This document shows positions 5,510 to 52,262 of a stretch of DNA of 62,546 bases, one piece after another. The position numbers were made by a program, and so were the translations under genes. How positions within the stretch are numbered: position 1 is the stretch's first letter; every line of letters begins with the position of its first letter. The notes beneath the pieces are model-generated. The model was not told where the DNA came from and did no database searches. It was given only the letters and a program-made list of their open reading frames with translations. This DNA comes from a virus (Duplodnaviria; Caudoviricetes), in the IMG/VR virus record IMGVR_UViG_3300021962_000102, positions 1 to 62,546 of that record. One strand, written 5' to 3'.

Positions 5510-5510
5510 T

Positions 5511-38782: not shown

Positions 38783-39532
38783 TTATAAATGGTCTAATAT
38801 TTGGGAATGATCTGTGTTTGCAATTAGTTTATCTATGGCGTCTTTTTTTATTTGGGACACCCTAACGTGAGCTGTTTCTACAAATATTCCTATTTTTTCA
38901 GCTATCTGTTTGGCATTGTGTTTTTCACAATCAAGACCATAGCTTAATCTAAGGACTTCATATTCTCTATCGTTAAGGTTCTTTTTCAAAAGACCCATTA
39001 GATAAGTATTAAGTATGTCTATATTATATGGCTCTGATGAGTCTGGTATGTCGTAGATATAGTTGTCGTCCACATTTGGTTGTTCATCAACAGATAAGAA
39101 TATGCTATTGAAGAACATTGCAACCATTTCTTTGTCTTTTCCACTGTCTTTTCTGATTTGGTTGATTTTGTGTTCGGGTATGCGTATATCACCTCTGTTT
39201 TTGTCGATGGCTCTACGTATTGCACCTTTGATTCTCTTTGATAAGAACGATATGATTGTTTTTTCTTTGTCATCGCTTCTTTCTACTTTTTCCCAATCTA
39301 TTTTATCAACAGCAGTAACCAAACCAATGTTGCCTTCCTGTATTAGGTCTTCTATGTTGAGAACGCCTATTGCTTGCTGTGTAGTAGTAAACTTTCTAGC
39401 AATGCCTTCTACAAGAGGTAAGAACATTGTTATAATGTCATCTCTATGTCTAGAATCTCTATCAACTCTAGATAAAAAGAATTCTACATCTTTTTTGTAT
39501 TTAACGTAATTCGTTATGTTGTACTTTTTCAT
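38783..39532 (-). CDS. phage sigma70-family factor (probably late)
   Basis: LVEGIARKF, DLIQEGNIGL, IRIP, region 4 LNDREYEVLRLSYGL..RVSQIKK. Confidence 0.88.
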   Translation of the reverse strand: MKKYNITNYVKYKKDVEFFLSRVDRDSRHRDDIITMFLPLVEGIARKFTTTQQAIGVLNIEDLIQEGNIGLVTAVDKIDWEKVERSDDKEKTIISFLSKRIKGAIRRAIDKNRGDIRIPEHKINQIRKDSGKDKEMVAMFFNSIFLSVDEQPNVDDNYIYDIPDSSEPYNIDILNTYLMGLLKKNLNDREYEVLRLSYGLDCEKHNAKQIAEKIGIFVETAHVRVSQIKKDAIDKLIANTDHSQILDHL

Positions 39533-40154
39533 AATCCAAGTTCAGTAATTGTTTCTCTTTTTTGAGATCATCACTGATGTTTCTATGAATAGTACGAACA
39601 GAACACTTTAACACCTCTGATAATTTTGAAAATGTAATTTTCTCATTATTATCATGTACGTAAAGCATAGCATCATATATATCGTCTTCGTTTATTTTTT
39701 TACTCTTACCGATAATACTTCCAACTATACTTAGTTTTTCAGTGATAGATAACCCACAGCCTTCCTTGAATATAATCTTTCTGGATTTATTCTTAGGAGA
39801 GAGTTCGAAGTCATATTTGATTAAGTCTTGGATTATATTATGTTTTACTTCTTCACTCGCTGTAAAAGTAATAAAACCATTTAACTTATTTGATAAAAAT
39901 TCTAATATTTCTATTATCTCACTGAATTTTCTACTTGGATTCAAATAAAGTATAACAAGCATGTGCCATTTTAATGACTTATACGATGTTATCCTAGCCT
40001 TGCTTCTAAATAGATCGTAGCATTCATTGGTGCCGTTTTCGTAATAATAGCCCCAAACAAATTCTTGTGTGTAGGTATCGTTAATAGGATTCCTCCTATA
40101 GACGATGCGTCTATTATTAAGGAATTCTAAATTTCGATCTGGGAATTGTGACAT
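39501..40154 (-). CDS. C-terminal HTH DNA-binding protein (possible origin-binding protein)
   Basis: ITFSKLSEVLKCSVRTIHRN HTH. Confidence 0.65.
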   Translation of the reverse strand: MSQFPDRNLEFLNNRRIVYRRNPINDTYTQEFVWGYYYENGTNECYDLFRSKARITSYKSLKWHMLVILYLNPSRKFSEIIEILEFLSNKLNGFITFTASEEVKHNIIQDLIKYDFELSPKNKSRKIIFKEGCGLSITEKLSIVGSIIGKSKKINEDDIYDAMLYVHDNNEKITFSKLSEVLKCSVRTIHRNISDDLKKEKQLLNLDYEKVQHNELR

Positions 40155-40194
40155 TTGCCCCCTACTATATTTTATCTATAACCCTAATGTCACA
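40147..40194. promoter_or_regulatory. 48-bp TGTGACA-N34-TGTCACA element overlapping the HTH gene start codon
   Basis: Same length and end repeats as the copies at 50532 and 50635. Confidence 0.7.
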
Positions 40195-40236
40195 GTTCTT
40201 GTTTAAGATACAGTGTTTGGTTATTAATTTGTTTCA

Positions 40237-40244
40237 CAAATTTA
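40237..40244 (-). promoter_or_regulatory. -7 box TAAATTTG upstream of the HTH gene
   Basis: Exact TAnnTTTG; TTTG 16 nt upstream. Confidence 0.5.
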
Positions 40245-40255
40245 TTAAACTATAT

Positions 40256-40750
40256 TCAACCAAATATCACTTCGTAGTTCTTTTCTGCGATTTCGCGCGT
40301 TGTGAACATTGATGCGAACTTTATTAAAGACTCTTTTTCGTGCCAAGATATGCGCTCAAATGCATCGTGTATAGCATTCTCAGCATCAAGCCTGTCCATC
40401 TTAGGTAACACATCGTCTTTTATGAAGTCAGTCATTTTTTTAATACTTGTGGCTTCTCCAAATTTGTATTTAACCTTGCACCTCTCATATGAGTCAACTG
40501 CTTTTTTATATAACTCTTTATAATCATCGTAAAGCATTCTATCGTCGTGTGTTCTTATATAATAAAGAATCGTTGAGTGGTCCATGCGCAATTGTCTGCC
40601 AAGTTCAGTTGGACCAACAATTTTAAATAGAACGTTGCTTATTGCTATTTTAGGAAGAACTATATCTCTACGTCTAGATCTAATAAGTGGAGCATCGATG
40701 TTGAAATAAAAATCTTGTATTGTTTCTTTTGCTATTGTTACGTATTTCAT
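40256..40750 (-). CDS. DnaA domain IV-like HTH protein
   Basis: RSRRRDIVLPK...ELGRQLRMDHSTILY resembles the DnaA C-terminal signature. Confidence 0.65.
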   Translation of the reverse strand: MKYVTIAKETIQDFYFNIDAPLIRSRRRDIVLPKIAISNVLFKIVGPTELGRQLRMDHSTILYYIRTHDDRMLYDDYKELYKKAVDSYERCKVKYKFGEATSIKKMTDFIKDDVLPKMDRLDAENAIHDAFERISWHEKESLIKFASMFTTREIAEKNYEVIFG

Positions 40751-40754
40751 GTTG

Positions 40755-41366
40755 TCAATGTTTTAATAGTCCAACTTTTATATTGTTATTGAACCATCTG
40801 GTTGCATATAAATCGTGTTCTGATGCGTTAATATATTCGTCGCGTTTCATCGCGTCTAATGACGAAAAAATAACGGCATGCCTGTCTTTTGTTACATCTA
40901 TATATTCTTTTTGTTTACCACTAGTGCTGAATATTATATCAAAGTTTTCTGGTATTAATTCAGAATTTTGTTTTATAAGCTTAACACTATTTGTGTAACT
41001 GTAGAACCGGATGTTTGGAAATTTATTTGCTATGTCTATCCATTTCTTTAAATAATTAAAAGAATAAAAATCACCAGAGTCATGTACTCTAACGTAAGAA
41101 GGATTTTCATAGGTTATATGTGACGACATGACTTCAACAAAATCATCTTTAAGAGTAGCACTGTATCTTTCTTCGTATGCTTTAGAAGGATTTTTGTATT
41201 TATAAGTTCCTTTCCTAGCATAACAGAACTTGACGCAGTCGCCAGCAAATGGACATGTTACTTTGCCAGTTACAGACTTAAACGCTGGTATACCAAAATT
41301 TAATATGCGCACACCAAAATGTTTTGACGTACGCAGCATTTTAGAATTCTGTGATAATAATTTCAT
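40755..41366 (-). CDS. GP88-like (radical-SAM-like) protein
   Basis: TCPFAGDCVKFCYA, RVHDSGDF, FYSYT. Confidence 0.7.
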   Translation of the reverse strand: MKLLSQNSKMLRTSKHFGVRILNFGIPAFKSVTGKVTCPFAGDCVKFCYARKGTYKYKNPSKAYEERYSATLKDDFVEVMSSHITYENPSYVRVHDSGDFYSFNYLKKWIDIANKFPNIRFYSYTNSVKLIKQNSELIPENFDIIFSTSGKQKEYIDVTKDRHAVIFSSLDAMKRDEYINASEHDLYATRWFNNNIKVGLLKH

Positions 41367-41371
41367 AATTG

Positions 41372-41403
41372 TATTATCAACGAAGTGTTGTTGTTTTGTT
41401 GTG
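41372..41403 (-). promoter_or_regulatory. phage early promoter motif
   Basis: CACA-N8-ACA-N10-GATAATA. Confidence 0.7.
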
Positions 41404-41406
41404 TGG

Positions 41407-41637
41407 TTATGTGTTTTTCTCAAACACAAACAATATGTTTTCCCAAGCTTTTATTTCAAACTCTAATCTAGCTATAGCGGTTTCTTTATACTTGTTTTTG
41501 TTTATCAATGGATTATAACTAGAGATCGTATCTGATAAAACAATTTTGTGATCAGATATATTTTTCATTATTAACTCTCTAGAAACAGAATCAATATATT
41601 GTTTAGAATATTCTATCGTTTCTATATCTAGTTTCAT
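41407..41637 (-). CDS. hypothetical protein
   Basis: Co-oriented ORF, ATG 41637. Confidence 0.5.
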   Translation of the reverse strand: MKLDIETIEYSKQYIDSVSRELIMKNISDHKIVLSDTISSYNPLINKNKYKETAIARLEFEIKAWENILFVFEKNT

Positions 41638-41766
41638 TGTGTTTCTACTATTAAACTTAAAGCTTTTATATAACCATTCCAATACGCTGTTTCTTCAGTA
41701 AGACCCCTATATTTACAAACATTGCGGTTGTACTTAGCTTTTCTGTATTGCTCAATTATTATTTTC

Positions 41767-42075
41767 TCATTTTTCATCGTTAAGACTATTTATATAATCT
41801 TCATAACGTAGGCACTCGGCACACACCCATTCATCTTTAGTTGGACTGTTTTGTAAAATCTTTCTGTACACCTCATTTGGTGAGCCGCACCTATCGCATC
41901 TAATACTGTTCTCTAATCCGTATGGATTCCAATCAGCATTATCCTTGAAGTCGCTTGACACCTCTACGTACCATAGACCGAAGTCAAAGATGATAGACCA
42001 AGCTACGTTTGGGTATCGTAACCACGTTACACCAATAGCAAACTGGTCAACGTATTTTCCTTTGCTAATTTTCAT
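41767..42075 (-). CDS. hypothetical protein with CxxC..CxxC Zn ribbon
   Basis: CDRC...CAEC. Confidence 0.55.
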   Translation of the reverse strand: MKISKGKYVDQFAIGVTWLRYPNVAWSIIFDFGLWYVEVSSDFKDNADWNPYGLENSIRCDRCGSPNEVYRKILQNSPTKDEWVCAECLRYEDYINSLNDEK

Positions 42076-42268
42076 TGTCAGATTTTGTTTGGTTATTCGG
42101 ATTTTCTCCGAGTTGAGGTTCATTTTTTGACAACTCTACGATAAAGTCAGCGACCTTCTCGCACTGCTGCTTGTTTAGGAAGTAAAGGCTGTTAGAATGG
42201 AACGTATGACGAATCTTATCGTACACCAACTTCTTTATCAGCGCCCACTTTTCTTCTTCTGTTCTCAT
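42065..42268 (-). CDS. hypothetical protein
   Basis: ATGA-coupled chain. Confidence 0.55.
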   Translation of the reverse strand: MRTEEEKWALIKKLVYDKIRHTFHSNSLYFLNKQQCEKVADFIVELSKNEPQLGENPNNQTKSDNEN

Positions 42269-42501
42269 TTGTACTTGCGTATTACTTCAAAGGTTCTCTT
42301 AATGTCAGAATCAAGATGTGGTTTTTGTTCTGCTCTCACAGGATACCAAGCAATAGTATAACCGTGGTTTGCATTCCAGTCTTCTTTCTTCACTCTGTTC
42401 CCGTTGACGCTGTGCAGATATATCCAAGGGATGTTACCCATCAGCTCAAGCTTAATGCCGATACGCTTCATACGATTGATGAAGATGTCAACCTCGTTCA
42501 T
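42265..42501 (-). CDS. hypothetical protein
   Basis: ATGA-coupled chain; GNIPWIYL motif. Confidence 0.65.
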   Translation of the reverse strand: MNEVDIFINRMKRIGIKLELMGNIPWIYLHSVNGNRVKKEDWNANHGYTIAWYPVRAEQKPHLDSDIKRTFEVIRKYK

Positions 42502-42707
42502 TTCTCGTTGGTTTTGTATTCTTTATCAAAAGAATCTGCAATCTGACGGGTGGTCAAATCTCCGTACTTGAAAGCGAAGTCAACCATCTGCTCCTTCTCC
42601 ATTTCTTTGGCTTTAATTAGAATATCATTTGCGTCTGTAAATTCTGATTTTCCATAAAGAAATTTTGATAACTCAATGTGTTGCCACTCTACTGCTGTCT
42701 GTTTCAT
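42498..42707 (-). CDS. MKQTAVEW-type small phage protein
   Basis: KQTAVEW...KAKEMEKEQ. Confidence 0.65.
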   Translation of the reverse strand: MKQTAVEWQHIELSKFLYGKSEFTDANDILIKAKEMEKEQMVDFAFKYGDLTTRQIADSFDKEYKTNEK

Positions 42708-42868
42708 TTCTCGTTTGTTTTAAAGGTTTCATTTAATAGTTCTGCTAAATCTTGGGCATCTTCTCCGATAGACCCAATTATCTTTCCGTCTACAAGCACG
42801 TTGTATCCGTATTCATCACAACATCCGTCTCCGCAGGTGTGCCAGTATGGTTGAAGTTCTATTTTCAT
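42704..42868 (-). CDS. 54-aa protein with CGDGCC motif (not in the ORF track)
   Basis: MKIELQPYWHTCGDGCCDEYG...FKTNEK*, ATGA overlaps at both ends. Confidence 0.65.
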   Translation of the reverse strand: MKIELQPYWHTCGDGCCDEYGYNVLVDGKIIGSIGEDAQDLAELLNETFKTNEK

Positions 42869-43155
42869 TTCTGCTTAGCGTCAAAGTCTGAATACTTCAG
42901 CCCCCACATTACATTGAACCAGCGCATCTCCTTCTCTGCATAGACTGCTCGCATCTTGAGTTCCTTCATAAGGTACTGCTTACCCCACTCCTTCAGTTCC
43001 TCTCCCTGCTCAAAGGTCATAGTGTACTTCTGAAACCACTTGTCTACGCCACGGATGTCGTCGTAGGTTACGTCGTGTCCAGCAATATCAAACATCTTAT
43101 TGATGATGTCAACGATTGCCTTCTCTTTCTTTTGTTCTCTTGTTAGTCGTTTCAT
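42865..43155 (-). CDS. hypothetical protein
   Basis: ATGA-coupled chain. Confidence 0.65.
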   Translation of the reverse strand: MKRLTREQKKEKAIVDIINKMFDIAGHDVTYDDIRGVDKWFQKYTMTFEQGEELKEWGKQYLMKELKMRAVYAEKEMRWFNVMWGLKYSDFDAKQK

Positions 43156-43304
43156 TCTTCAGTGTTGAAATAGTTAGACGTGCTACACTCCTCACACAAC
43201 CGCTTGCCCTGCATCACAAGACCGAGCTTTGGTGTATGTGTAGTCACCTTCTGGCAGTGTAAGCAGAACTGCTTACCTCGTTTGTGGATTGCGTCTTGTT
43301 TCAT
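43152..43304 (-). CDS. 50-aa Zn-ribbon protein (not in the ORF track)
   Basis: FCLHC...LCEEC; ATGA overlap. Confidence 0.6.
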   Translation of the reverse strand: MKQDAIHKRGKQFCLHCQKVTTHTPKLGLVMQGKRLCEECSTSNYFNTEE

Positions 43305-43349
43305 AATGTGTGTTTAAATGCACAAAGTGTGTAGGTTTTGTGTGATTTA

Positions 43350-43607
43350 TTACACATTATCCTCAATTAGAATCTCCCAATAGTCGTCGTGTTCAACGAA
43401 CCCATTAACAATTCCTTGTAGTAAATACAGCGACATATTAGTGCCCAAGGATATAAATGGTCCGCCGCTTGGGTCAACAAATATAATCTTGTCGTCATCA
43501 TTCCACCCGTAGCGCGTGTACTTGAAGTCTCCCTTCCAGTCGATGTTGCCGTTCTCGTTCTTTTCAAACGTGAACTCGTCTTTATATCTGTTAGTGTACT
43601 TAATCAT
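43350..43607 (-). CDS. hypothetical protein
   Basis: FVDPSGGPFI motif. Confidence 0.65.
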   Translation of the reverse strand: MIKYTNRYKDEFTFEKNENGNIDWKGDFKYTRYGWNDDDKIIFVDPSGGPFISLGTNMSLYLLQGIVNGFVEHDDYWEILIEDNV

Positions 43608-43966
43608 TGGAATGTTTGAATTTTAGCATATACTTCTTTTAGTTCAGACCAAGTACCTAAGTACGTAATTGCTCTAACTTTTCTGTTGTCAATCCATACG
43701 TATTCTTGTCCGTCTTTGATGCGTGGTTTATCCATCACTAATCCATGATACTTGAATCCGTGGTCACTCAACCATTTTTCTGTAACGGCACGGTCTTTTG
43801 ATTCTCTTGCTGTGAAAAAAGTTATAACATTACCATCTTCATACCACTTGTTTATGATTTTTAAAGCGTTGTCATAAACTTTAGCGTATGGGAACAAATG
43901 ACTTTCTTCATTTTTAATGTCATCGCATATTGTTCCGTCAATATCAATTAAGAATACTTTATTCAT
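43604..43966 (-). CDS. HAD-superfamily phosphatase
   Basis: FLIDIDGT, FTAR, MDKP, WIDN; ATG 43966. Confidence 0.8.
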   Translation of the reverse strand: MNKVFLIDIDGTICDDIKNEESHLFPYAKVYDNALKIINKWYEDGNVITFFTARESKDRAVTEKWLSDHGFKYHGLVMDKPRIKDGQEYVWIDNRKVRAITYLGTWSELKEVYAKIQTFQ

Positions 43967-43978
43967 TTTGTTTTTACT

Positions 43979-44055
43979 TGGCACCCCTGACAGGAATCGA
44001 ACCTGTAACCTACGCATTAGAAGTGCGTTGCTCTATCCAGTTGAGCTACAGGGGC
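43979..44055 (-). tRNA. tRNA-Arg(UCU)
   Basis: Canonical cloverleaf, loop CT-TCT-AA, GTTCGA T loop, encoded CCA. Confidence 0.95.
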
Positions 44056-44060
44056 ATAAT

Positions 44061-44139
44061 AGTACGCTCGGTGGGACTCGAACCCACGTGTGACCAGTTA
44101 CCCTTTCTACAAGGTATAAGCTTGAGGGGATACGAGCGT
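44061..44139 (-). tRNA. non-canonical tRNA-like RNA, anticodon UAU (Ile), no D arm
   Basis: 7-bp acceptor ACGCTCG/CGAGCGT, T arm GTGGG-TTCGAGT-CCCAC, loop CT-TAT-AC, discriminator A. Confidence 0.7.
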
Positions 44140-44146
44140 TTATGCT

Positions 44147-44356
44147 TTAAAACTCAGGATGTATATCGCTATCATTTAGCGAATCGTAGTGTTCTCCGTT
44201 GTTTCCATTGCGTAGTATGATCATCATACGTTGCTCTGCTTCTTTTTCTTCTTCGTCAATCTCAATTTGTTGGAATTGCGCGTGTACTGCGCAGGCATTG
44301 ACTATGTATTTCTGGTCGTCTCCAGGGTCGTCGTCAAGTATCACATTATTGTTCAT
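44147..44356 (-). CDS. hypothetical acidic protein
   Basis: RMMIILRNGNNGEHY motif. Confidence 0.55.
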   Translation of the reverse strand: MNNNVILDDDPGDDQKYIVNACAVHAQFQQIEIDEEEKEAEQRMMIILRNGNNGEHYDSLNDSDIHPEF

Positions 44357-44553
44357 TGTTCCCAATATATGAATTTGTAACCATCAGTATTATTAGATGC
44401 TTTGTTTTTCGATCTATCAATCATTGATTTACGTTCTAGCCATCTAGAATACATTTTAGCAACTACTGCATCTCTTTGTCTTTTAAATGGATAGTATTTT
44501 CTAACCTTAGCATTAGCTATTCTTAAAAAGTCATTCATCTGCTTGTCGTCCAT
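44353..44553 (-). CDS. hypothetical protein
   Basis: Coupled ORF. Confidence 0.55.
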   Translation of the reverse strand: MDDKQMNDFLRIANAKVRKYYPFKRQRDAVVAKMYSRWLERKSMIDRSKNKASNNTDGYKFIYWEQ

Positions 44554-44818
44554 CTCCTTCTTCTTGTTTAGTGTTGTAAAGCATACTGCAAAATAAAATA
44601 TATGTAGCTATTTTATTATAAATATACTCAGACGGTAGACCATCGTCTTTGTCTGACTTTATAACATTTATAGCAAATTTAGCTGCTAGTTTTTCAACAA
44701 ACACGCTAGCAGCCTCTGCTCCGAATTGTTTATGTACTTCATAAACGCTCTTGCCTATATCTAGAGGGTTTATTTCACTTATGTTAAAGTCTTCCTGATC
44801 CATTGTAATACTGCTCAA
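44531..44818 (-). CDS. hypothetical protein (start may be 44803)
   Basis: Co-oriented ORF. Confidence 0.5.
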   Translation of the reverse strand: MSSITMDQEDFNISEINPLDIGKSVYEVHKQFGAEAASVFVEKLAAKFAINVIKSDKDDGLPSEYIYNKIATYILFCSMLYNTKQEEGDGRQADE

Positions 44819-44941
44819 CTATGTTTATTGCCCTGTCCATAGCTTGTAAGTTGGCAGTGTGCACGTTTTTGTTTTTGAGCATCCATTCAACGAATTTAGC
44901 GCTTTTAGAAATACTTTCTGCAAGTTTATCTTGTTTCATAA

Positions 44942-45211
44942 TTAATGTTGTTGCCAAATCATCATTGTTCCTGGATCATACCACTCGAAATACCAACCGT
45001 TTTTTTCAACAAGTTCGTTGATTTTTGGATGTACGCCAAATGTGTTGTTCCAAGTATCACTATAGTAATCGAAGAACTGTGGAGTGTAATCTGCAGCTAA
45101 CCAAATGCCTTGATTTTCTACTTTGTGACCATAAAAATCAGATGCGGTACCACACACTTTAAGACCTTTTTCCGAAAGCAGGTCCATTAATTTACTAATA
45201 TCAGTAGCCAT
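44942..45211 (-). CDS. hypothetical protein
   Basis: GWYFEWYDPGT motif. Confidence 0.65.
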   Translation of the reverse strand: MATDISKLMDLLSEKGLKVCGTASDFYGHKVENQGIWLAADYTPQFFDYYSDTWNNTFGVHPKINELVEKNGWYFEWYDPGTMMIWQQH

Positions 45212-45464
45212 TTTCGTCTAAATAAGCTTGAATTAATTCTTCTAACTTGTTAAAAAACACAATGTTAGAACCGTTTTTATCCACGATTAACGCCTTTGAA
45301 CCTATAGATAGGCTAATTGCATTTACATAAGCATCCCAGCCTGCTTGAGCGCCAGTGCCAGATTCGTAGTCTAATTCTGCTGGAGAATATTCTGCAGATC
45401 CGAACACATCAACTTCAATGTGATCGTTAAAAGGCATTAGCCCAGTTAATTCTATTTTTGACAT
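45201..45464 (-). CDS. hypothetical acidic protein
   Basis: Directly downstream of an early promoter. Confidence 0.6.
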   Translation of the reverse strand: MSKIELTGLMPFNDHIEVDVFGSAEYSPAELDYESGTGAQAGWDAYVNAISLSIGSKALIVDKNGSNIVFFNKLEELIQAYLDENGY

Positions 45465-45481
45465 TTAGCTGTTGTTTTATG

Positions 45482-45513
45482 TATTATCAAACGGTGATCG
45501 TTACTTGGTTGTG
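45482..45513 (-). promoter_or_regulatory. phage early promoter motif
   Basis: CACA-N8-ACG-N10-GATAATA. Confidence 0.75.
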
Positions 45514-45893
45514 AGGTAAATGTTTTTATTGATCTTACGGTTGTGTGAAATGCTCCACTTGTGTTCATTTGCAGTCACGTAGTCAAGTATGTATAGCAAA
45601 CGATCCTTACGGCTGAGAATCTTTACAACCTTACCATCTATACGCGGGTTGATTGGATAGTATTGGTTTGAGAAGTTTTTACCAATGTTGCGTTGGCGTA
45701 TTACGTTTCCAGCAAGTGTTTCACTGATTGTGAATCCATATCGCGTTTGCCAATATGTACTACCGTTGTTAAGGTTTTTCTTCGGAGCAACAGGTGTTAA
45801 GCCAGCGTCAATAAGCTTTTTCCAAGCGTTGCCTTCTGATTTGATTTCGTCATAGACAATAGTGAGTTCGTAGGGTTTATTTGTCTTTTTCAT
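45501..45893 (-). CDS. hypothetical protein
   Basis: 130-aa co-oriented ORF. Confidence 0.6.
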   Translation of the reverse strand: MKKTNKPYELTIVYDEIKSEGNAWKKLIDAGLTPVAPKKNLNNGSTYWQTRYGFTISETLAGNVIRQRNIGKNFSNQYYPINPRIDGKVVKILSRKDRLLYILDYVTANEHKWSISHNRKINKNIYLTTK

Positions 45894-45983
45894 TTTTTTC
45901 TGATTTTTTATCTAGGTATTTTGACAATAAGAATACTGATACTAAAAACAATAGGAATATTGAAAACGGTATAATCTTGTTTA

Positions 45984-46844
45984 CTACAGTAAGATACTTG
46001 AGCATTTTTTATTTCTTTTTAATCTATTTAATCCGCTGTCTTTTAGTTGACGCGCTTTTTCATCTGGAATATCTAATTCCATAGCTATTTGCTTAATAGT
46101 CTTGGCATGTTCAAACGCGCCTAAATACATTGACACAACCTTGAAGTGCATTGGATTTAAAACCTTCTCTGCAGTTTTCCAAAACAGATTTACTGTAGAC
46201 TCCTGTGTTATATCTTCATCTGGTTGTGCGTAGGTTGTGTTAGGCAACACATCAGATATTGTAGTTGATGATTCATCTCCAGACAGCGTAGCGTCGCTAG
46301 ACGTCATCTCTGCGGTGTGGTTGAACATGTCTAAAACAAAACTCTCTTCAACGCCAAGATGTTCTGCAATCTCAAAAGGTTCTGGTTCTCTAAACAGTTT
46401 CTGCTCGAGCTCAGACGATGCCTTGCGTATCCTATTCATATTGGCATTCCTATTGCCTGGCGTGTATATCTGCTTTGACTTAGTGTCAATTGAGTGTAGT
46501 ATACTCTGCCTGATCCACCACACGGCGAACGATATGAACTTAAAACCTCTTGTTGGATCGAACCTGTCAACAGCCTTAATAAGGCCGATGTTGCCTTCTG
46601 ATATTAAGTCTTCAAGCTTCATACCAGATACTTGATACTGCTTGGCGACAGATACAACAAACCTTAAGTTTGCGCGCGTTAGTTTTTCTTTTGCAACTGG
46701 ATCCCCTGTTTCGTAAATGATTTTAGTTAATTCAAATTCTTCTTCTGGCGTTAATAGTTTTTCTTTAGAAAGCTCTAAAAAGTATTTATCTATTGATTTG
46801 CTTTCGCGTTTAGTAATCTGATTGGCGATCTTAAGTTGGCGCAT
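45984..46844 (-). CDS. RpoD/SigA-like sigma factor of the Bacteroidota primary-sigma type
   Basis: MRQLKI..ITKRE, ANLRFVVSVAKQYQ, DLISEGNIGL, FDPTRGFKFISFAVWWIRQSI. Confidence 0.92.
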   Translation of the reverse strand: MRQLKIANQITKRESKSIDKYFLELSKEKLLTPEEEFELTKIIYETGDPVAKEKLTRANLRFVVSVAKQYQVSGMKLEDLISEGNIGLIKAVDRFDPTRGFKFISFAVWWIRQSILHSIDTKSKQIYTPGNRNANMNRIRKASSELEQKLFREPEPFEIAEHLGVEESFVLDMFNHTAEMTSSDATLSGDESSTTISDVLPNTTYAQPDEDITQESTVNLFWKTAEKVLNPMHFKVVSMYLGAFEHAKTIKQIAMELDIPDEKARQLKDSGLNRLKRNKKCSSILL

Positions 46845-47059
46845 TAATCTAAAAGTTCTGGATAAAATTCTCGGATAGTCATCTTATCCATTTCATAATA
46901 TGGCGATGACAAGAAATCAAACAACTGTTGCTTTGTGCCCGTTAACAAGGCTATGCCGTAGTTGGTTTTACAGGCGATATTAAACTTGGCACATAAAGAA
47001 ACAAACTCTTGCTCTGGACCAACGTAGTCTAGATCAATAGTTAAAAGTTCTTCTTGCAT
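46844..47059 (-). CDS. hypothetical protein
   Basis: Coupled ORF. Confidence 0.55.
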   Translation of the reverse strand: MQEELLTIDLDYVGPEQEFVSLCAKFNIACKTNYGIALLTGTKQQLFDFLSSPYYEMDKMTIREFYPELLD

Positions 47060-47391
47060 TAGTAAACGTTTTTAATAAGTATTCTTTGGTGCGAACTACC
47101 GTCCCATTCGACTTCATAGCCTGCGGTTTCAAACGTACGGCGGATTTCTTCACCGTCACCAGCCCACGCGATGTATAGGTTGTTTGTATCTCTAAGATGA
47201 GACTTGTCTTGTGCGTGGTAGAAAACAACCTTTTGCTCTTTGCCTTCTGGCACGGCACTCCATCCGCACCCCTGGCAGCACATGAAGTTTTGCCTAGCGA
47301 AGTACCCTAGTTTACGCAGTTCTTTAAACACTGCGGTTAATTGGCTATTGTCAACACTATAGCGATTGCTGTATCTCGTCGAGCGCCTCAT
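47059..47391 (-). CDS. DUF6891-like protein
   Basis: ARQNFMCCQGCG, VFYHAQD, LYIAW. Confidence 0.6.
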   Translation of the reverse strand: MRRSTRYSNRYSVDNSQLTAVFKELRKLGYFARQNFMCCQGCGWSAVPEGKEQKVVFYHAQDKSHLRDTNNLYIAWAGDGEEIRRTFETAGYEVEWDGSSHQRILIKNVY

Positions 47392-47581
47392 AGTTGATGT
47401 CTCCGTTTTGGTTAATGATGTTGTTTTCAATAAGTGCACTAGCGGCGCGGCCGTAAAAGCCTTGTAGTTGCCAAGCCATACCCGTGCGGATAAGGGTTGA
47501 GAACATATTTATAGTGCTAATGTCATCTAGTTCGCCGTTTTCAAAGGCGATAATGTTGTCTAAAGAGAAGTTGTCTTGCAT
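47357..47581 (-). CDS. DUF7417-like protein
   Basis: LIRTGMAWQLQGFYGRAA..LI. Confidence 0.65.
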   Translation of the reverse strand: MQDNFSLDNIIAFENGELDDISTINMFSTLIRTGMAWQLQGFYGRAASALIENNIINQNGDINYEALDEIQQSL

Positions 47582-47638
47582 TGTGGTCGTTGTTGATGTA
47601 ACCAAGAGGCGCTACAGACGTAACGCCCCGTGGTACAT

Positions 47639-47671
47639 TATTATCAACTACTTTGACGTAACGCCATCGTG
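47639..47671 (-). promoter_or_regulatory. phage early promoter motif
   Basis: CACG-N8-ACG-N11-GATAATA. Confidence 0.7.
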
Positions 47672-47675
47672 AAGA

Positions 47676-48329
47676 TTAAGAGATAATGCTGAAGTACGTA
47701 CCGTGACCTGGGCGCTCAACAATATGTTCTTCGCCTTCGATTACAAACTTAACTCGCTTGCAGTCTGCAAAGCCGATCTCACGTCGCTCCATTGCTGTTG
47801 ATGAAGCGTGACCATTTCTGATGTAAATCTTTTGATCTGTTTCGTGTGTATTTGTGTCAACTGTAAAGCTATCACCAAAGTTGTGCCATTCTTTTTCTGG
47901 TTGCTTGTAACCACCTTCTTCAAGAACAGAGATTACAACTGGTCGTTGATCATCTGTAGCAGCCAATATCATTTTTTCTGCAAACTTCTTGGTGATATGA
48001 ACTTCTTTTGTGAACGGACTGTTGTTCTCTGCGATTTGTGAACTGATCTTTTCTTTCCAGTCAGAGCAAGCTACATCGTAGATTTTACCAATGCTTTCAC
48101 GCTTTAGCTTAATCATACTTGAGTCATCTGCTAGCTCTAACCAACGGGCGTTGCACCACATATTGTCGTCTTCGGCGAAGCTTACTCGCGCGGTTTCGTC
48201 GCTTGGGTCTACGATGATTACTTCGCCAGTTTTGCCAAGGTATTCGCTACTAATGACACCAACGCCTGGACCTTCTGTAAGGTTAACTACTTTTACTTGT
48301 TGTCCTTCTTTGATTTCGTGGATTTTCAT
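47676..48329 (-). CDS. hypothetical protein with an N-terminal SH3/KOW-like region
   Basis: IKEGQQVKV...GKTGEVI; YIRNG..EIGF shared with 48621..49526. Confidence 0.6.
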   Translation of the reverse strand: MKIHEIKEGQQVKVVNLTEGPGVGVISSEYLGKTGEVIIVDPSDETARVSFAEDDNMWCNARWLELADDSSMIKLKRESIGKIYDVACSDWKEKISSQIAENNSPFTKEVHITKKFAEKMILAATDDQRPVVISVLEEGGYKQPEKEWHNFGDSFTVDTNTHETDQKIYIRNGHASSTAMERREIGFADCKRVKFVIEGEEHIVERPGHGTYFSIIS

Positions 48330-48387
48330 AAAAAAATAAAATTAAGGTTAAGTGAAAATTAAAGGTTATAACTAGTGTGTATAGCAA

Positions 48388-48594
48388 CTACTGCTGCGGG
48401 AAAAACTTATCTGTATTGCGTTTGACATATTCTAGCCCAGCGATGAAGCCGACGTCAAAGATGCGCATCATCTCTTCTTGAGAACCAGCGAGTTCAGTGA
48501 ACTCAAGGAACTGTTTGTCATCGGAGAATGATACGTAGATGCTGGCCATCTCATTCATTAGCCATTGCTGCATTAGTTGTTCTTGCTCAGTCAT
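48388..48594 (-). CDS. hypothetical protein
   Basis: Downstream of an early promoter. Confidence 0.6.
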   Translation of the reverse strand: MTEQEQLMQQWLMNEMASIYVSFSDDKQFLEFTELAGSQEEMMRIFDVGFIAGLEYVKRNTDKFFPQQ

Positions 48595-48615
48595 AGTGCT
48601 GTTGTTTTACATAGA

Positions 48616-48647
48616 TATTATCAATGCGCTTGCGTCGCGCGATCGTG
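48616..48647 (-). promoter_or_regulatory. phage early promoter motif
   Basis: CACG-N8-ACG-N10-GATAATA. Confidence 0.75.
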
Positions 48648-49526
48648 AGGACGAAGGCGGAAGTAGTTATCCGCTGTTCCACGGTTAACTACGTCAAACA
48701 CGACCTCGCCAGTATTGACGTTCTCAATACAAATGCGGAAATAGCCTGAAAAACCAATCTCAAAGCATCTATACTCTGGACTACTAGATAAACCATTTCG
48801 GATGTATAGATTGTTGCCGCTGTGCATTTCTAAGTCTATATTGTAGAAACGCTTTTTAACCAATCGCTTATGGTACTTGTTATCCGTGATTGTATCCAAG
48901 AATTTACTGACTACGCTGTACTTGCCCCAATGGTGCATTAGTATTTCGTAGAAAACCCAGTCTTTAGGATCTGGGAAAACGTTAAAAACATCGTAACTAA
49001 ACAGTCTACCTAAAAAGTCTTTCTTGATGTCTAGTTTATCTTCAAGCGGGATCATAGACATGTCAATAGCTTCAAAGAAATCACCTAAATGCTCTTGCAA
49101 ATCTTTAGGGTTCTTAATCACGCTCTTACCACTAAGTGGCCTGATGAAGATGCGGTACTCATCTCGCTTACCAGACGTGGTGAACGCAGCGCCATCGGTT
49201 TGGTACACCATAGTGAAGAAGTCTAAATCATACTTGTTAGACACAAGCAAACCACCGTTCACCTCTGTGAGTGCATCGTTGCCGTAAAGCTTAAATTCTT
49301 TGCCGAAGTGATAGCAACCACCGTTGAGTAGTTTTTTGAACTCAACTTCTTTGTCGCCAGCGTAGTTTTCGATTAAGAAGTCAACCTCTTCCTCGCTCAA
49401 GTGAACCACATCCATAAACACATTAGAACCAGCCATATCTTCAAACTCTCGGCGAGCCTTGCCTGGCAAATCAAAGTAGAACGGCTTTAACTCATCCAGT
49501 TCTACGTAAGTTATTTTTTCTTTCAT
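48621..49526 (-). CDS. hypothetical protein
   Basis: 301-aa ORF. Confidence 0.65.
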   Translation of the reverse strand: MKEKITYVELDELKPFYFDLPGKARREFEDMAGSNVFMDVVHLSEEEVDFLIENYAGDKEVEFKKLLNGGCYHFGKEFKLYGNDALTEVNGGLLVSNKYDLDFFTMVYQTDGAAFTTSGKRDEYRIFIRPLSGKSVIKNPKDLQEHLGDFFEAIDMSMIPLEDKLDIKKDFLGRLFSYDVFNVFPDPKDWVFYEILMHHWGKYSVVSKFLDTITDNKYHKRLVKKRFYNIDLEMHSGNNLYIRNGLSSSPEYRCFEIGFSGYFRICIENVNTGEVVFDVVNRGTADNYFRLRPHDRATQAH

Positions 49527-49637
49527 AGGTTTTTAAGTTAAATGTTAGGGCGACTGCCTAGGGCTAACTACAAGTGCAACCTTTAATCCATCGGTGAAGC
49601 CAAATGCACCAGTAGAAAATACCCTAAGCAATCTGGT

Positions 49638-49895
49638 CTAACCCTTGGCTCCACCAATTTTCTTAATACTACCGATCATAGCCCATCCGATGATAAATCC
49701 AGACATAGACGAGATAACGGCGTTATAATCTTCAACCATACCCTTGTTATCAGGGTCAATGTCAAGCTTGATACCGAACTCGTCATTAAGCATTTCTAAA
49801 AGCATTTCAAACGCAATAGAACTCTGTGCTTCGACCTCGGTGGTCATAGACTCTAAGTGCTTCTCAAAGTCTTCGTAGATAAATGAATCTTGCAT
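49638..49895 (-). CDS. hypothetical acidic protein
   Basis: Co-oriented ORF. Confidence 0.55.
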   Translation of the reverse strand: MQDSFIYEDFEKHLESMTTEVEAQSSIAFEMLLEMLNDEFGIKLDIDPDNKGMVEDYNAVISSMSGFIIGWAMIGSIKKIGGAKG

Positions 49896-49900
49896 ACTAA

Positions 49901-50137
49901 TTATTTTTTAGGCATTGTCTTATACCAAACATTCTTGTAAACCATATTGAACGCCAGTGAACCGATGTAGCCATCTAAACCTTGGCGCTTGTACTCATTG
50001 TACATAGCTTCGTGCATACCCGTTATAGTTGTAGCGTTGAAAACGCCTGACGGGTTTAAATCATCAAAAGTCTCAAGCAACACACCGACTAAAGCGGAGC
50101 GTAAGCTATCAATACTAGGTTCGTGGGTTTGTAGCAT
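49901..50137 (-). CDS. hypothetical protein
   Basis: Downstream of an early promoter. Confidence 0.55.
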   Translation of the reverse strand: MLQTHEPSIDSLRSALVGVLLETFDDLNPSGVFNATTITGMHEAMYNEYKRQGLDGYIGSLAFNMVYKNVWYKTMPKK

Positions 50138-50161
50138 AACTAAGTTGTGTTTTTACATAGA

Positions 50162-50193
50162 TATTATCGTCTGTCTTGCGTCATAAGATTGTA
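50162..50193 (-). promoter_or_regulatory. phage early promoter motif
   Basis: TACA-N8-ACG-N10-GATAATA. Confidence 0.7.
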
Positions 50194-50219
50194 TAGTTGA
50201 CAACTACACCATTTTATGG

Positions 50220-50426
50220 TTAAAGCTCGTTAGATTCAACTACAGCCGTGCTAAACGATGCGGCAAGGATAACTAGGCCAAGCACAACCCGCACGTTCTC
50301 ATCAATAGCATAGTAATCCATTGACCCAGTAAACAATACATAGAAAAAGTAAATAACAAACCAAAATAAAACCGATGACACAATAAGAACACCAATAAAC
50401 CGAACGAGTGAAGTGATAACTTCCAT
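50220..50426 (-). CDS. small two-TM membrane protein
   Basis: Two hydrophobic stretches. Confidence 0.55.
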   Translation of the reverse strand: MEVITSLVRFIGVLIVSSVLFWFVIYFFYVLFTGSMDYYAIDENVRVVLGLVILAASFSTAVVESNEL

Positions 50427-50505
50427 AATCAAGGTGGATAAAGAGTTAAAGTGAAAAAAACTAAGAGGAGGTTCAAAACCCTATCTCACACTAAGTGAAT
50501 AGGAA

Positions 50506-50687
50506 ATGTCACCAAACTAAGCTGAAAAAACTGTGACATTTGCCTTATAAGTAGTATATAGTAACGGGCTATTGTCACACTTTTGGCGGAGTTTAAGGTT
50601 ACTGGTAATGTCACCAGGTGAACCTCAAAAAAACTGTGACATTAGCCTTATAAGTAATAGATAGTAACAGGCTATTGTCACACTTTT
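50506..50687. repeat. ~103-bp tandem repeat with two 48-bp TGTGACA..TGTCACA elements and two extra TGTCAC half-sites (candidate origin)
   Basis: Elements at 50532-50579 and 50635-50682; ATGTCACC at 50506 and 50608. Confidence 0.85.
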
Positions 50688-50690
50688 AGT

Positions 50691-50891
50691 TTACTCTGCT
50701 ATGAAGGTCAAACCTTGGCAGGTAAAGAAGTCGCTCTCACTTGTCTTGAAGGTTTTAGGTAGCTCGTTGAGCCTGTGACCTTCGTAAGTTTTTCCTTTGT
50801 ACTGTAACTTGATACGGCGACTGTCGCCTGAATAAAAGAATTTTAGGAACATACCTGAGGATTTAAGGTTTAGGGTGATCGCACTGATCAT
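50691..50891 (-). CDS. hypothetical protein
   Basis: Downstream of an early promoter. Confidence 0.55.
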   Translation of the reverse strand: MISAITLNLKSSGMFLKFFYSGDSRRIKLQYKGKTYEGHRLNELPKTFKTSESDFFTCQGLTFIAE

Positions 50892-50894
50892 TTG

Positions 50895-50933
50895 TATTAT
50901 CAGACGCGGTGTGTATTAGGATTGTGTATAGCA
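50895..50933 (-). promoter_or_regulatory. phage early promoter motif with TGCTATA extension
   Basis: TGCTATACACA-N8-ACA-N10-GATAATA. Confidence 0.8.
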
Positions 50934-50945
50934 AAAAATAAAAGG

Positions 50946-50969
50946 AAAAAAGGCACCCGAAGGTGCCCT
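50946..50969 (-). terminator. intrinsic terminator (UUCG loop)
   Basis: GGCACC-TTCG-GGTGCC-TTTTTT. Confidence 0.85.
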
Positions 50970-50975
50970 TAATCC

Positions 50976-51209
50976 TTACTTCAATGCTTCTCGCACGAAT
51001 TTAGGTAGGTTGTTACTATTAGTGTAATTCCCGTATTTATTAAAGCAAGGCATTGCTTCAAACTTAGCTTTAAACAGCTCGAACACTTTATCGTGGTCGT
51101 AGGTCATTTCTTCACCTTTAGTATTCTTAAAAGTGATAGTTAAACCTTTGCCGAGCATATTCTTGGCAATTACAAAGCGATTCTTGGTGACTGAGGTTGA
51201 GGTAGACAT
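50976..51209 (-). CDS. early protein, paralogue 3
   Basis: KNRFVIAK..TYDHDKV..MPCFNKYGNYTNSNNLPKF. Confidence 0.8.
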   Translation of the reverse strand: MSTSTSVTKNRFVIAKNMLGKGLTITFKNTKGEEMTYDHDKVFELFKAKFEAMPCFNKYGNYTNSNNLPKFVREALK

Positions 51210-51247
51210 AGGAATGAGGTTTTAGACTGAGCGTCGATGCTCATCGT

Positions 51248-51286
51248 TATTATCCAATAGAGACTGTTTTAGGATTGTGTATAGCA
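51248..51286 (-). promoter_or_regulatory. phage early promoter motif with TGCTATA extension
   Basis: TGCTATACACA-N8-ACA-N10-GATAATA. Confidence 0.8.
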
Positions 51287-51296
51287 AATTAAAAAG

Positions 51297-51322
51297 AAAA
51301 AAAGAGGAGCTTTCGCTCCCCT
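51297..51322 (-). terminator. intrinsic terminator (GAAA loop)
   Basis: GGAGC-GAAA-GCTCC followed by a T tract. Confidence 0.8.
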
Positions 51323-51325
51323 TAG

Positions 51326-51550
51326 TCACTTCAAAGCCTCTCTGATAAACTTTGGTAAGTTATTACTATTCGTATAGTTTCCATACTTATTGAAGCAAGG
51401 CATCTCATCGAACTTACTCTTGAACATCTCGTATACCTTGTCGTGCTCGTAGGTTACTTCCTCACCTTTGGCATTCTTGAATACAATAGTCAGTTCCTTA
51501 CCAATCATATTCTTGGCGATCACGAAACGGTTCTTGGTTACTTGTGGCAT
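51326..51550 (-). CDS. early protein, paralogue 2
   Basis: Closely similar to 50976..51209. Confidence 0.8.
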   Translation of the reverse strand: MPQVTKNRFVIAKNMIGKELTIVFKNAKGEEVTYEHDKVYEMFKSKFDEMPCFNKYGNYTNSNNLPKFIREALK

Positions 51551-51590
51551 AATAAGTGGTGTTAGACGTAAGCTTTAGTGCTTACATAGG

Positions 51591-51629
51591 GATTATCCAT
51601 AGGAGCTCGTTAGAATCTTGTGTATAGCA
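51591..51629 (-). promoter_or_regulatory. phage early promoter motif with TGCTATA extension
   Basis: TGCTATACACA-N8-ACG-N10-GATAATC. Confidence 0.8.
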
Positions 51630-51639
51630 TACATAAAAG

Positions 51640-51661
51640 AAAAAAAGGGACCGAAGTCCCT
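51640..51661 (-). terminator. intrinsic terminator (UUCG loop)
   Basis: AGGGAC-TTCG-GTCCCT-TTTTTT. Confidence 0.85.
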
Positions 51662-51665
51662 CGTC

Positions 51666-51920
51666 TTACAGCATACTCGCCATATCTCTTACGAACTTAG
51701 GCAAGTTGTTACTGTTGGTGTAGTTACCGTACTTAGCGAAGCATGGCATCACTTCAAAGCGAGACTTGTTTGCCTCATACACCTTATCGTGATCGTATGT
51801 ACACTCTTCGCCTTTGTGGTTAGTGAATGAGATGATGATTCCTTTACCTAGCATGCTCTTCGCGATAACGAAACGCTTCTTGGCTACTGGTGCTGGGGTG
51901 GGGGTGGCTGTCTTAGACAT
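51666..51920 (-). CDS. early protein, paralogue 1
   Basis: Start at MSKT (51920), downstream of the promoter. Confidence 0.8.
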   Translation of the reverse strand: MSKTATPTPAPVAKKRFVIAKSMLGKGIIISFTNHKGEECTYDHDKVYEANKSRFEVMPCFAKYGNYTNSNNLPKFVRDMASML

Positions 51921-51947
51921 GATTAGAGGATTTAAGTTAGACATAGG

Positions 51948-51986
51948 TATTATCCATGGCAACTCGTAAGGATCTCGTGTATAGCA
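51948..51986 (-). promoter_or_regulatory. phage early promoter motif with TGCTATA extension (outermost)
   Basis: TGCTATACACG-N8-ACG-N10-GATAATA. Confidence 0.8.
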
Positions 51987-52217: not shown

Positions 52218-52262
52218 CTAAATTAGCATTAATGGGAAGTCTTTAAATGTGATAGTGATAAT

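Follow-up and report, generated by a model that had tools for sequence, protein, structure and literature searches.

Three copies of a 48-bp inverted-repeat element are carried by the IMG/VR virus record IMGVR_UViG_3300021962_000102 (Duplodnaviria; Caudoviricetes), and one of them lies across the start codon of a gene encoding a helix-turn-helix (HTH) protein. The stretch analyzed, called the window here, is the whole virus record of 62,546 bp (completeness estimate, 99%). The comparisons described below suggest that the element is real, is strongly conserved in a large group of uncultured phages, and has a regulatory role, most likely as a promoter-operator. We think it reasonably probable that the element is a phage-specific middle or late promoter of the sigma type, and its palindromic arms may in addition serve the HTH protein as an operator.

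The window contains three copies of the element

We scanned the window for TGTGACA-N30-38-TGTCACA, using 100 dinucleotide-preserving shuffles as a control. Exactly three matches were found, each 48 bp long and of the form TGTGACA-N34-TGTCACA (Table 1), and none of the 100 shuffles contained any match. These are the three copies that a first-pass annotation of this DNA had reported; all are exact, and there are none elsewhere in the window. The heptamer by itself is not enriched (7 observed versus 8.3 expected), and six of its seven occurrences are arms of the three elements. A profile of the element also matches only these copies, and a simple promoter scan marks GTGACA-18-TATAGT or GATAGT at all three (GTGACA-18-TATAGT, 10 of 12, at the copy at 40 kb).

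Read on the minus strand, the 40-kb copy consists of TGTGACA (-35-like), TAGTAG (-10-like), and then A-ATGTCACA. Its right arm on that strand is ATGTCACA, the start of the HTH gene (open reading frame [ORF] 39501-40154), as had been observed. The copy is indeed reversed relative to those at 50.5 kb, with which it forms an inverted repeat whose 57-nt arms are 77% complementary. Both 50.5-kb copies point rightward, copy 50532..50579 away from the early block and copy 50635..50682 with the highest profile score of the window copies. No ORF begins inside copy 50532..50579, where TTG is followed by a 30-codon frame.

The two 50.5-kb copies belong to a tandem duplication of two ~103-bp units, each composed of one ATGTCACC half-site, an A-tract, and one element copy. 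The extra half-sites noted earlier fall inside this duplication, as ATGTCACC at 50506-50513 and 50608-50615. The duplication was found by repeat search and alignment, and TRF run on 50300-52400 reported no tandem array. The tandem pair with its half-sites recurs only in a 97%-identical relative (L074) and in no other relative examined, so by this comparison the 103-bp duplication is lineage specific. The cores of the copies had been described as AT rich; at 68 to 71% A+T they are, but this is barely above the local background.

The element is conserved among relatives of the HTH gene

Relatives of the HTH protein with 44 to 59% identity were found in viral contigs at 70 loci, and in the unfiltered upstream regions the same element stands before nearly all of them. 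Together with the window, these loci gave 53 distinct upstream regions (the gene-anchored set, unfiltered). The strict pattern was present in 46 of the 53 and the loose pattern in 50, and the most informative positions were AGTAA, GC, and ATGTCA. With the conserved A of the element taken as +1, 51 of the 53 HTH genes begin ATGTCA with ATG at +2; in the remaining two, the motif is at the aligned place. In a second collection, from metagenome-assembled genomes (MAGs), the element was found at 15 of 18 usable loci and a close variant at two more. Conservation beside the HTH gene in relatives was a point on which the first-pass annotation had said that its interpretation could fail, and the element withstood it.

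Among whole related records, the strict pattern was present in 43 of 49 and the reversed control in 0, and a sequence-only profile built from 91 copies had a match in 50 of 50. The pattern by which the 91 copies were collected fixes GACA, GTA, GC, and TGTCA, so the invariant columns of their alignment (A2) are partly built in; only the gene-anchored set of 53 regions and the profile search are free of this collection bias. Among GenBank phages, no match was obtained by megablast of 39400-51700 or by tblastn of the HTH protein.

Other genomes carry a single copy of the element or two copies with genes between them, and at a locus with two nontandem copies, these are 0.35 to 1.5 kb apart with small ORFs between. 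Copies within a genome are more alike than copies from different genomes (72.4% versus 68.6%), a difference reached by 0 of 5,000 label shuffles in a test that kinship among genomes inflates. This likeness fits one shared reader of the copies in each genome.

A divergent case is a 117,301-bp contig binned as Flavobacteriaceae (L133), on which an HTH homologue and a variant element, TATGACG ... ATGTCGCA, lie mid-contig. A concatemer, a larger relative, or an integrated copy could each explain the locus.

The element is asymmetric and resembles a promoter with mirrored arms

At the HTH gene the consensus of the element is tgTGACAAtAGg...TaA.aaatAaatAGTAAtagGCtAATGTCACA, and at other copies it is TgTGACAtTAGcct.ttAa.ttaa.atAGTAA.aGGCtAtTGTCACacTtTt. 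The blocks follow one another in the order (T)GTGACA, 18 to 20 nt, TAGTAA, 6 nt, A, and NTGTCAC. The distance from GACA to GTA is 20 to 22 nt in all 91 copies, the A at the second position of TAGTAA is nearly invariant, and NTG is directly preceded by an A in 41 of 50 copies at HTH genes and in 33 of the 41 others. Despite its inverted arms, the element is asymmetric: copies score 40 to 51 bits against the profile in the orientation described here versus 19 to 21 bits when reversed.

If the conserved A is taken as +1, TAGTAA falls at -12 to -7, GACA falls at about -35 to -32, and the HTH mRNA would have a one-nucleotide leader. The full layout would then be an A- or T-tract, (T)GTGACA at about -37 to -32, the 18- to 20-nt spacer, TAGTAA at -12 to -7, nRGGCW, A at +1, and NTGTCAC at +2 to +8. 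Several features expected of a sigma-70-type promoter are present: there are two blocks with constrained spacing, the downstream one having an A at -11, and the orientation is fixed, with a short distance to the gene served for all but ~12 distal and 2 third-locus copies.

The right arm extends into the coding region of the HTH gene, where codon 2 is TCA in 49 of 49 genes, compared with 23% of their 523 other serine codons. Copies that do not overlap a gene keep TGTCAC too, behind TTG, GTG, CTG, or ATG. By these counts, the right arm is constrained as DNA and not as protein. The two arms are inverted copies of one half-site of ~11 bp, GACAnTAGSC.

Paired copies point outward from the early block

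The orientation of the copies relative to each other and to genes was tabulated from the strands and coordinates of record-wide listings. Forty records list a copy at the HTH gene together with another copy, and in every one the two are on opposite strands, facing outward, 4.7 to 9.5 kb apart; the pairs in G007, G012, G026, G030, and G035, and that of one of the two second copies in G013, span the record ends. The window has the same outward arrangement, with 10.3 kb between the two sets. For 10 relatives we retrieved 20-kb stretches, and in every one the early block lies between the copies and has the transcriptional direction of the HTH operon.

Among 41 distinct copies that are not at an HTH gene, 27 adjoin an ORF on the same strand with no opposite-strand ORF between. 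For 23 of these the ORF begins 36 to 150 nt downstream, and for the other four it begins at 12, 292, 388, and 438 nt. The upstream neighbor is an ORF on the opposite strand for 37 of the 41 copies, and these regions are therefore divergent. In relatives, a homologue of ORF 52263-52508 starts 36 to 126 nt after the proximal copy, with GroEL soon after, whereas in the window this ORF is 1.58 to 1.69 kb downstream of the two 50.5-kb copies.

A second conserved noncoding motif, TGTAATWA / TAAGTATAAT, sometimes with TAAATTT before it, was seen in many relatives 25 to 40 nt past proximal copies, between the copy and the first rightward gene (L103-L105, L107, L115-L119, and others). In the window, the place where relatives have the proximal copy is occupied by two tandem 33-bp repeats (52159-52224), each with CTATACA on the plus strand, 40 to 90 nt before ORF 52263.

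Candidate proteins that could read or bind the element

The HTH protein belongs to a family with 392 representatives at the 50% cluster level, and Pfam HTH_11 was found in 31 of 35 members. Its fold is predicted with a pLDDT of 89. In a wide structure search, only residues 152 to 217 matched, to TetR-type or generic HTH domains (Z 5 to 6, at most 6.2). Foldseek comparison of the predicted fold with the PDB gave nothing at an E value of 0.001 or lower, and a profile search of PDB sequences gave nothing below 0.08. Neither family scans nor the structure search recognized an initiator family in the protein, but only a generic HTH. The HTH protein is a candidate binder of the palindromic arms.

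The gene after it, which overlaps its end, encodes a small sigma-70-family protein (sigma2). An ORF of 211 to 260 amino acids (sigma2) directly follows the HTH gene in 48 of 49 relatives, and in the exception sigma2 is 3 kb downstream. Sigma2 passes only the superfamily model TIGR02937 (69 bits versus a cutoff of 42.9), its region 2 is nearest to RpoD and FliA types, and comparison with GenBank phages found only distant sigma genes. The constant association suggests that sigma2 is probably the likeliest reader of the element. Prediction of an HTH-sigma2 complex gave a score of 0.00 in both runs, which carries no weight either way.

Two other proteins were considered and set aside. The early block encodes a second, larger sigma factor (sigma1), for which the only close counterpart is in the near-identical L074; the next relatives, at 30 to 47% identity, are on much larger viral contigs, and ORFs of ~280 amino acids in six of six other relatives are DNA ligases. 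Sigma1 was rejected as a general reader because the relatives lack it. The last early gene upstream of the 40-kb element encodes a 164-amino-acid protein that had been labeled DnaA-IV-like, a label that found no support in family searches: ORF 40256-40750 matches no family and is not a conserved neighbor. Relatives have ORFs of at least three unrelated families at the position upstream of the HTH copy, and the ORF of the window is a singleton. It was rejected as the binder of the element because it is not conserved.

The case for a promoter

From the observed anatomy, conservation, orientation, and positions of the element, we infer promoter function, a transcription start at the conserved A, and the identity of the proteins that would read or bind it. 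What makes a promoter the best reading is that the copies keep one orientation and a narrow spacing, contain -35-like and -10-like blocks, and sit in divergent intergenic regions, with no other motif shared. In particular, GCTATACA is missing from the 400 nt upstream on the same strand at 27 of 41 other copies and 37 of 48 HTH copies.

Several observations weigh against a promoter. The evidence for it consists of anatomy and position. The spacer of 18 to 20 nt is long for a sigma-70-type promoter, the -10-like hexamer ends in A and not in T, and matches to a promoter-like consensus are, as a class, no more frequent in the window than in shuffles (46 versus 39 +/- 7 expected). Many invariant columns of A2 were preset by the collecting pattern. 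At 11 of the 48 HTH copies and 14 of the 41 others, GCTATACA does lie upstream on the same strand and could itself be the real promoter. About 12 of the 41 other copies, both 50.5-kb copies included, are distal, with one to five small opposite-strand ORFs next to them, and the third-locus copies in G003 and G046 point into long convergent ORFs. (These two are at G003:27105-27156 on the plus strand and G046:39838-39889 on the minus strand [loci L123 and L122], each followed by ATG and a frame of 22 to 39 codons.) Several relatives have an upstream ORF whose stop codon falls within the element (12 to 22 nt before the ATG), which would allow HTH expression by read-through even if the gene itself had no promoter. 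Finally, a mirror image of the -35 block at +2 to +8 is not explained by a promoter alone.

Because a promoter gives no account of the mirrored arms, a second function is needed. An operator for the HTH protein that brackets the polymerase site would be the simplest addition. The arms lie on both sides of that site and would suit a dimeric HTH regulator, so autoregulation by the HTH protein seems likely, and a regulatory link of this kind between the element and the HTH gene is plausible.

A proposed regulatory scheme

If the element is a promoter, the leftward copy would drive the genes for the HTH protein, sigma2, ERF recombinase, exonuclease, and primase-helicase. With its ATG at +2, the HTH mRNA would be almost leaderless. 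The rightward copies would drive the operon on the opposite strand, which encodes a small basic protein, lysis genes, GroEL, and then terminase, portal, and capsid. Early transcription would first run on into the HTH-sigma2 genes; since upstream ORFs sometimes end inside the element, such transcription can enter these genes and could start a positive loop. Sigma2 with host core polymerase would then fire both element promoters, perhaps helped or checked by the HTH protein, and as a result the pair's own operon would be amplified and the late strand switched on. The rightward copies of the window precede four small early genes on the minus strand, so their transcripts would cross those genes antisense.

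A more specific and, as far as we can tell, new arrangement can be put forward only tentatively, and we consider it unlikely. The -35 block and the first transcribed bases would be inverted copies of one half-site, read by an HTH protein and small sigma factor whose nearly leaderless mRNA starts inside that very site. There would be two such switches, pointing outward, through which the pair would feed back on itself and turn on the late strand. In phages like this one, antisense transcripts would also run through the immediate-early genes, and the reversed DNA of the element would end early transcripts. Going further, the gene-less transcript of a distal copy might prime replication.

Alternative explanations

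The strongest alternative, although we judge it unlikely as a full account, is that the element is purely an operator: a site for a phage regulator, most likely the HTH protein acting as a dimer or tetramer on the two 11-bp arms. Transcripts would then start elsewhere; read-through into the HTH-sigma operon would be blocked at the start codon, and the rightward operon would be gated. The inverted GACAnTAGSC arms are conserved in sequence on both sides of the element, even within the coding region, and the HTH gene always starts in the element. The C-terminal domain of the HTH protein resembles the TetR-type HTH, a family that binds palindromes as dimers. The upstream ORFs that can end in the element would make read-through transcripts available for control, and some copies have the upstream GCTATACA mentioned above. 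A plain palindrome, however, does not need the asymmetric center, with AGTAA on one side, or an orientation that is fixed in every genome. Moreover, the 27 other copies that lack GCTATACA have no other conserved promoter-like motif nearby, and the centers of the half-sites are ~36 to 41 bp apart, too far for one simple dimer.

We also asked how far the element could be explained as an RNA hairpin. In this explanation, which we consider improbable, reversed distal copies would be intrinsic terminators or attenuators of the small immediate-early units, and at the HTH gene the forward hairpin would hide the start codon in read-through mRNA. Of the arm positions, 79.5% are able to pair, and single copies do fold (z, -1.5 to -5.2). 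The minus-strand folding energy is -21.1 kcal/mol (z, -5.2) for the 50.6-kb copy and -14.3 kcal/mol (z, -2.9) for the 50.5-kb copy. Each of these hairpins is followed by GUUUUUU, and the first begins 9 nt past the stop codon of ORF 50691-50891, at the place where three paralogous units have ordinary terminators. A run of at least five A residues within the 8 nt upstream, which gives a U-run on the opposite strand, was found at 8 of 12 distal versus 10 of 27 proximal copies, the rows not being independent. A stable hairpin with a U-run is a feature of the 50.5-kb copies and of 8 of the 12 distal copies, whereas most proximal and HTH copies lack it.

The arms, by contrast, show no more covariation than shuffled controls do (the observed score was equaled or exceeded in 492 of 500), and inner pairs do not form in roughly half of the copies (for pair 19-45, in 40 of 84 distinct rows). 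The lack of covariation indicates that the hairpin is not under selection and that the arms are kept as sequences, which suggests recognition by a protein. With its ~20-nt loop and its AT-rich, interrupted stem, the structure is unlike the phage's own terminators, and proximal copies lie in plain divergent regions that no opposite transcript crosses. No Rfam family matches the element; the Rfam matches in 39 to 53 kb are two tRNAs and subthreshold noise. Termination is possible as a side function of reversed distal copies.

The first-pass annotation had proposed an iteron-like origin of replication. An origin, whether made of iterons bound by an initiator or of the promoter type and primed from the transcript of the gene-less copy, as at oriF and oriG of T4, where the transcript of a promoter primes DNA synthesis, now seems very improbable. 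It would suit the two tandem copies and half-sites at 50.5 kb, the recombination and replication module (ERF, exonuclease, and primase-helicase) that adjoins the element, and the distal copies with no gene directly downstream, whose transcript could have a noncoding role. But the tandem arrangement, with at most two copies, and the half-sites are limited to the lineage of the window and L074. Most genomes have single copies, or copies separated by genes, at two distant loci 5 to 10 kb apart, in inverted and fixed orientation, and their positions are tied to gene starts. No initiator family was recognized in the HTH protein, and the skew analysis suggested at the time gives no help to an origin, since the GC-skew turning points of the window merely follow gene orientation.

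The other idea raised at that stage, that the inverted repeats flanking 40.2 to 50.5 kb are recombination sites at which the 10-kb early block inverts, can be given almost no credence, as all 10 relatives retrieved have their early block in one and the same orientation with respect to the HTH operon, all 40 records with both sites listed keep the outward arrangement, the arms are only ~77% identical, and no recombinase family was found among 56 window proteins scanned against Pfam.

A second promoter-like motif and host-type signals

The motif TGCTATACA occurs nine times on the minus strand of the window and not at all on the plus strand, where ~0.24 would be expected on each. In the window it stands at the head of small early units, relatives show enrichment for it as well, and it looks like a second, separate promoter class. 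The occurrence at 24490 is antisense, inside a gene for a 2,293-amino-acid protein, and that at 40368..40376 could be the source of read-through transcripts. We rejected TGCTATACA as a constant companion promoter of the element, since most copies have none within 400 nt.

We also compared the element with signals described for Flavobacterium. In the available part of one study, the -7 box is given as TAHHTTTG, occupying -12 to -5, with hardly any G at -10 and -9 (PMC6847099). At that place the element has TAGTAAnR, with G at -10 and no TTTG, and so does not fit the Bacteroidota primary-sigma box as that part of the study describes it. Judged by its sequence, the element is not a host sigma-A promoter. 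The same portion of that study reports that A at -3 is favorable for Flavobacterium translation (PMC6847099); the HTH gene has C at -3, which by that account is a poor context for leadered initiation. Leaderless mRNAs make up 5.5% in F. psychrophilum, according to the accessible part of another report (PMC9723704), and on that figure a leaderless regulator would be unusual but not unprecedented there. A full-text literature search, in which the motif sequence was not searched as text, returned nothing on the element or on sigma factors of flavobacterial phages.

Genome context

Genes lie on the minus strand from ~29.8 to 52.0 kb and on the plus strand in the remainder of the window. The minus block starts with the four small early-type units. 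These are partly repetitive: three to four tandem units of ~350 bp (50889-51994) each have a conserved leader and a small ORF, the ORFs being paralogous in three (77, 74, and 98 amino acids) and unrelated in the fourth (66 amino acids). Leftward follow ~25 small early genes, two tRNA genes, and the gene for sigma1; the tRNA genes are at 43982-44055 and 44063-44139 on the minus strand (Rfam tRNA; 71.6 and 31.4 bits). Past the 40-kb element, the block encodes the HTH protein, sigma2, ERF recombinase, a PD-(D/E)XK nuclease, and primase-helicase and, further along, ThyX, MazG, and ribonucleotide reductase.

The first products encoded in the plus block, from 52263 onward, are small proteins, a holin-like protein, an endolysin, and GroEL (54705-56306, plus strand; PHROG 5725, E value of 9e-134). 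Later genes encode terminase, portal, and structural proteins, as well as a protein whose C-terminal domain is of the crAss "muzzle" type. In its order of GroEL, terminase, portal, capsid, and tail genes, the genome resembles the Cellulophaga phage phi14:2. The muzzle domain belongs to a 1,436-amino-acid ORF (16112-20422, plus strand) that precedes a 2,293-amino-acid ORF (22518-29399, plus strand) at the position where crAss-like phages have a virion RNA polymerase. The latter ORF has no Pfam or PHROG match and no D[FY]DxD motif, and for these reasons we make no claim as to what transcribes the early genes. Other plus-strand genes encode a GroES-like protein (5487-6110; PHROG 13932) and, at 739-3416 on the late strand, a glycosyltransferase, an FkbM-type methyltransferase, and a sulfotransferase, which may serve in surface modification.

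Start codons in the window have A-rich leaders without a Shine-Dalgarno sequence, which is compatible with a Bacteroidota host. Among 26 MAG contigs with the HTH gene, eight are in bins labeled Bacteroidota and the others are mixed, a weak indication of a Bacteroidota host.

TABLE 1 Positions of the element copies and of associated genes and motifs in the window
Feature	Position	Strand	Description
Sigma2, sigma-70 family, 249 aa, regions 2 and 4	38783..39532	-	Overlaps HTH gene end
HTH gene, 217 aa	39501..40154	-	New N-terminal domain and C-terminal three-helix HTH; ATG in right arm
Element copy, head of HTH-sigma operon	40147..40194	-	Pattern match; profile 40.4 bits on minus strand
164-aa ORF, last early gene upstream of element	40256..40750	-	No Pfam, PHROG, or NCBIfam match
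TGCTATACA motif ~180 nt upstream of HTH-gene copy	40368..40376	-	Same strand as copy
Sigma1, RpoD/RpoS-like, 286 aa, regions 1.2-4	45984..46844	-	Early block
Tandem duplication, two ~103-bp units	50500..50706	.	Repeat search; 80/103 positions identical
Element copy 1 at 50.5 kb	50532..50579	+	Pattern match; profile 45.8 bits on plus strand
Element copy 2 at 50.6 kb	50635..50682	+	Pattern match; profile 50.6 bits on plus strand
Four small early-type units	50691..51962	-	TGCTATACA motif in each; own hairpin/T-run terminator in three
First gene of rightward operon, 81 aa, basic	52263..52508	+	57-59% identity to L105_77 and L107_77
TGCTATACA sites	51978, 51621, 51278, 50925, 48378, 45590, 40368, 34988, 24490	-	Motif scan

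Significance and comparison with known systems

The phages that carry the element form a large and uncultured group, with 392 HTH representatives, 70 viral contigs, and 26 MAG contigs. In their genomes, a promoter-like motif of this kind offers a landmark for the boundary between early and late genes, and it brings together a cis element and two conserved candidate factors that would act in trans (a new HTH protein and a minimal sigma factor). Together these might supply an orthogonal promoter and sigma pair for Bacteroidota, where standard expression signals fail. If the arms prove to be an operator, the element would be a compact case of one site acting as promoter, operator, and start codon.

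Among known systems, iteron origins of plasmids and lambdoid phages are similar in having repeated sites near the gene for a DNA-binding protein, with one copy over the gene start. Here, however, there is no array of three or more direct repeats, and the copies are inverted, distant, and tied to gene starts.

As in autoregulated operons of ECF-type sigma factors and in phage sigma cascades such as that of SPO1 (gp28 and gp33/34), a sigma-70-family gene (regions 2 and 4) is found here in an operon under a distinctive promoter-like element, and the same motif heads a later operon. In contrast to ECF systems, the element lacks the ECF-type "AAC ... CGT", and the partner gene precedes the sigma gene and encodes an HTH protein rather than a membrane anti-sigma factor. 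Sigma2 also differs from both the SPO1 and ECF factors in that it passes the superfamily model only and has a region 2 nearest to RpoD/FliA.

In lambda, PL and PR point outward and are controlled at OL and OR, each with three 17-bp operators, and the leaderless cI mRNA starts at PRM. The arrangement described here is similar in its two related, outward-pointing promoter-operators at a central block, in a regulator mRNA that would start at the AUG, and in palindromes that overlap the proposed polymerase site. It differs in that no repressor-family or integrase gene was seen in the window and in that each element has one pair of arms 34 bp apart. The flanked block here consists of 5 to 10 kb of early genes, and the regulator gene lies outside the block, where it would be read from one of the outward promoters.

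To our knowledge, almost all that has been learned of gene expression in such phages comes from phi14:2. In the available part of that work, an extended motif of three parts is described for middle promoters upstream of g108 and g110 of this crAss-like phage, whose promoters are read by the host holoenzyme (bioRxiv 10.1101/2020.03.07.982082). Inspection of the gene order showed that g108 and g110 head a GroEL-terminase-portal operon, which is the place of the rightward copy here. The two systems are thus alike, as far as that account goes, in having long conserved motifs with -35-like and -10-like blocks and a further block, in few copies and in Bacteroidota-type hosts, with one copy heading an operon of small genes, GroEL, terminase, portal, and capsid. 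They differ in that the motifs upstream of g070, g075, g108, and g110 of phi14:2 contain the host-type boxes TTG ... TAnnTTTG and are unrelated in sequence to the element, and in that phi14:2 lacks the HTH-sigma pair; a search of positions 50 to 100 kb of phi14:2 with the element profile gave nothing better than an E value of 0.5. By analogy of layout and position, the middle promoter of phi14:2 is the nearest described case.

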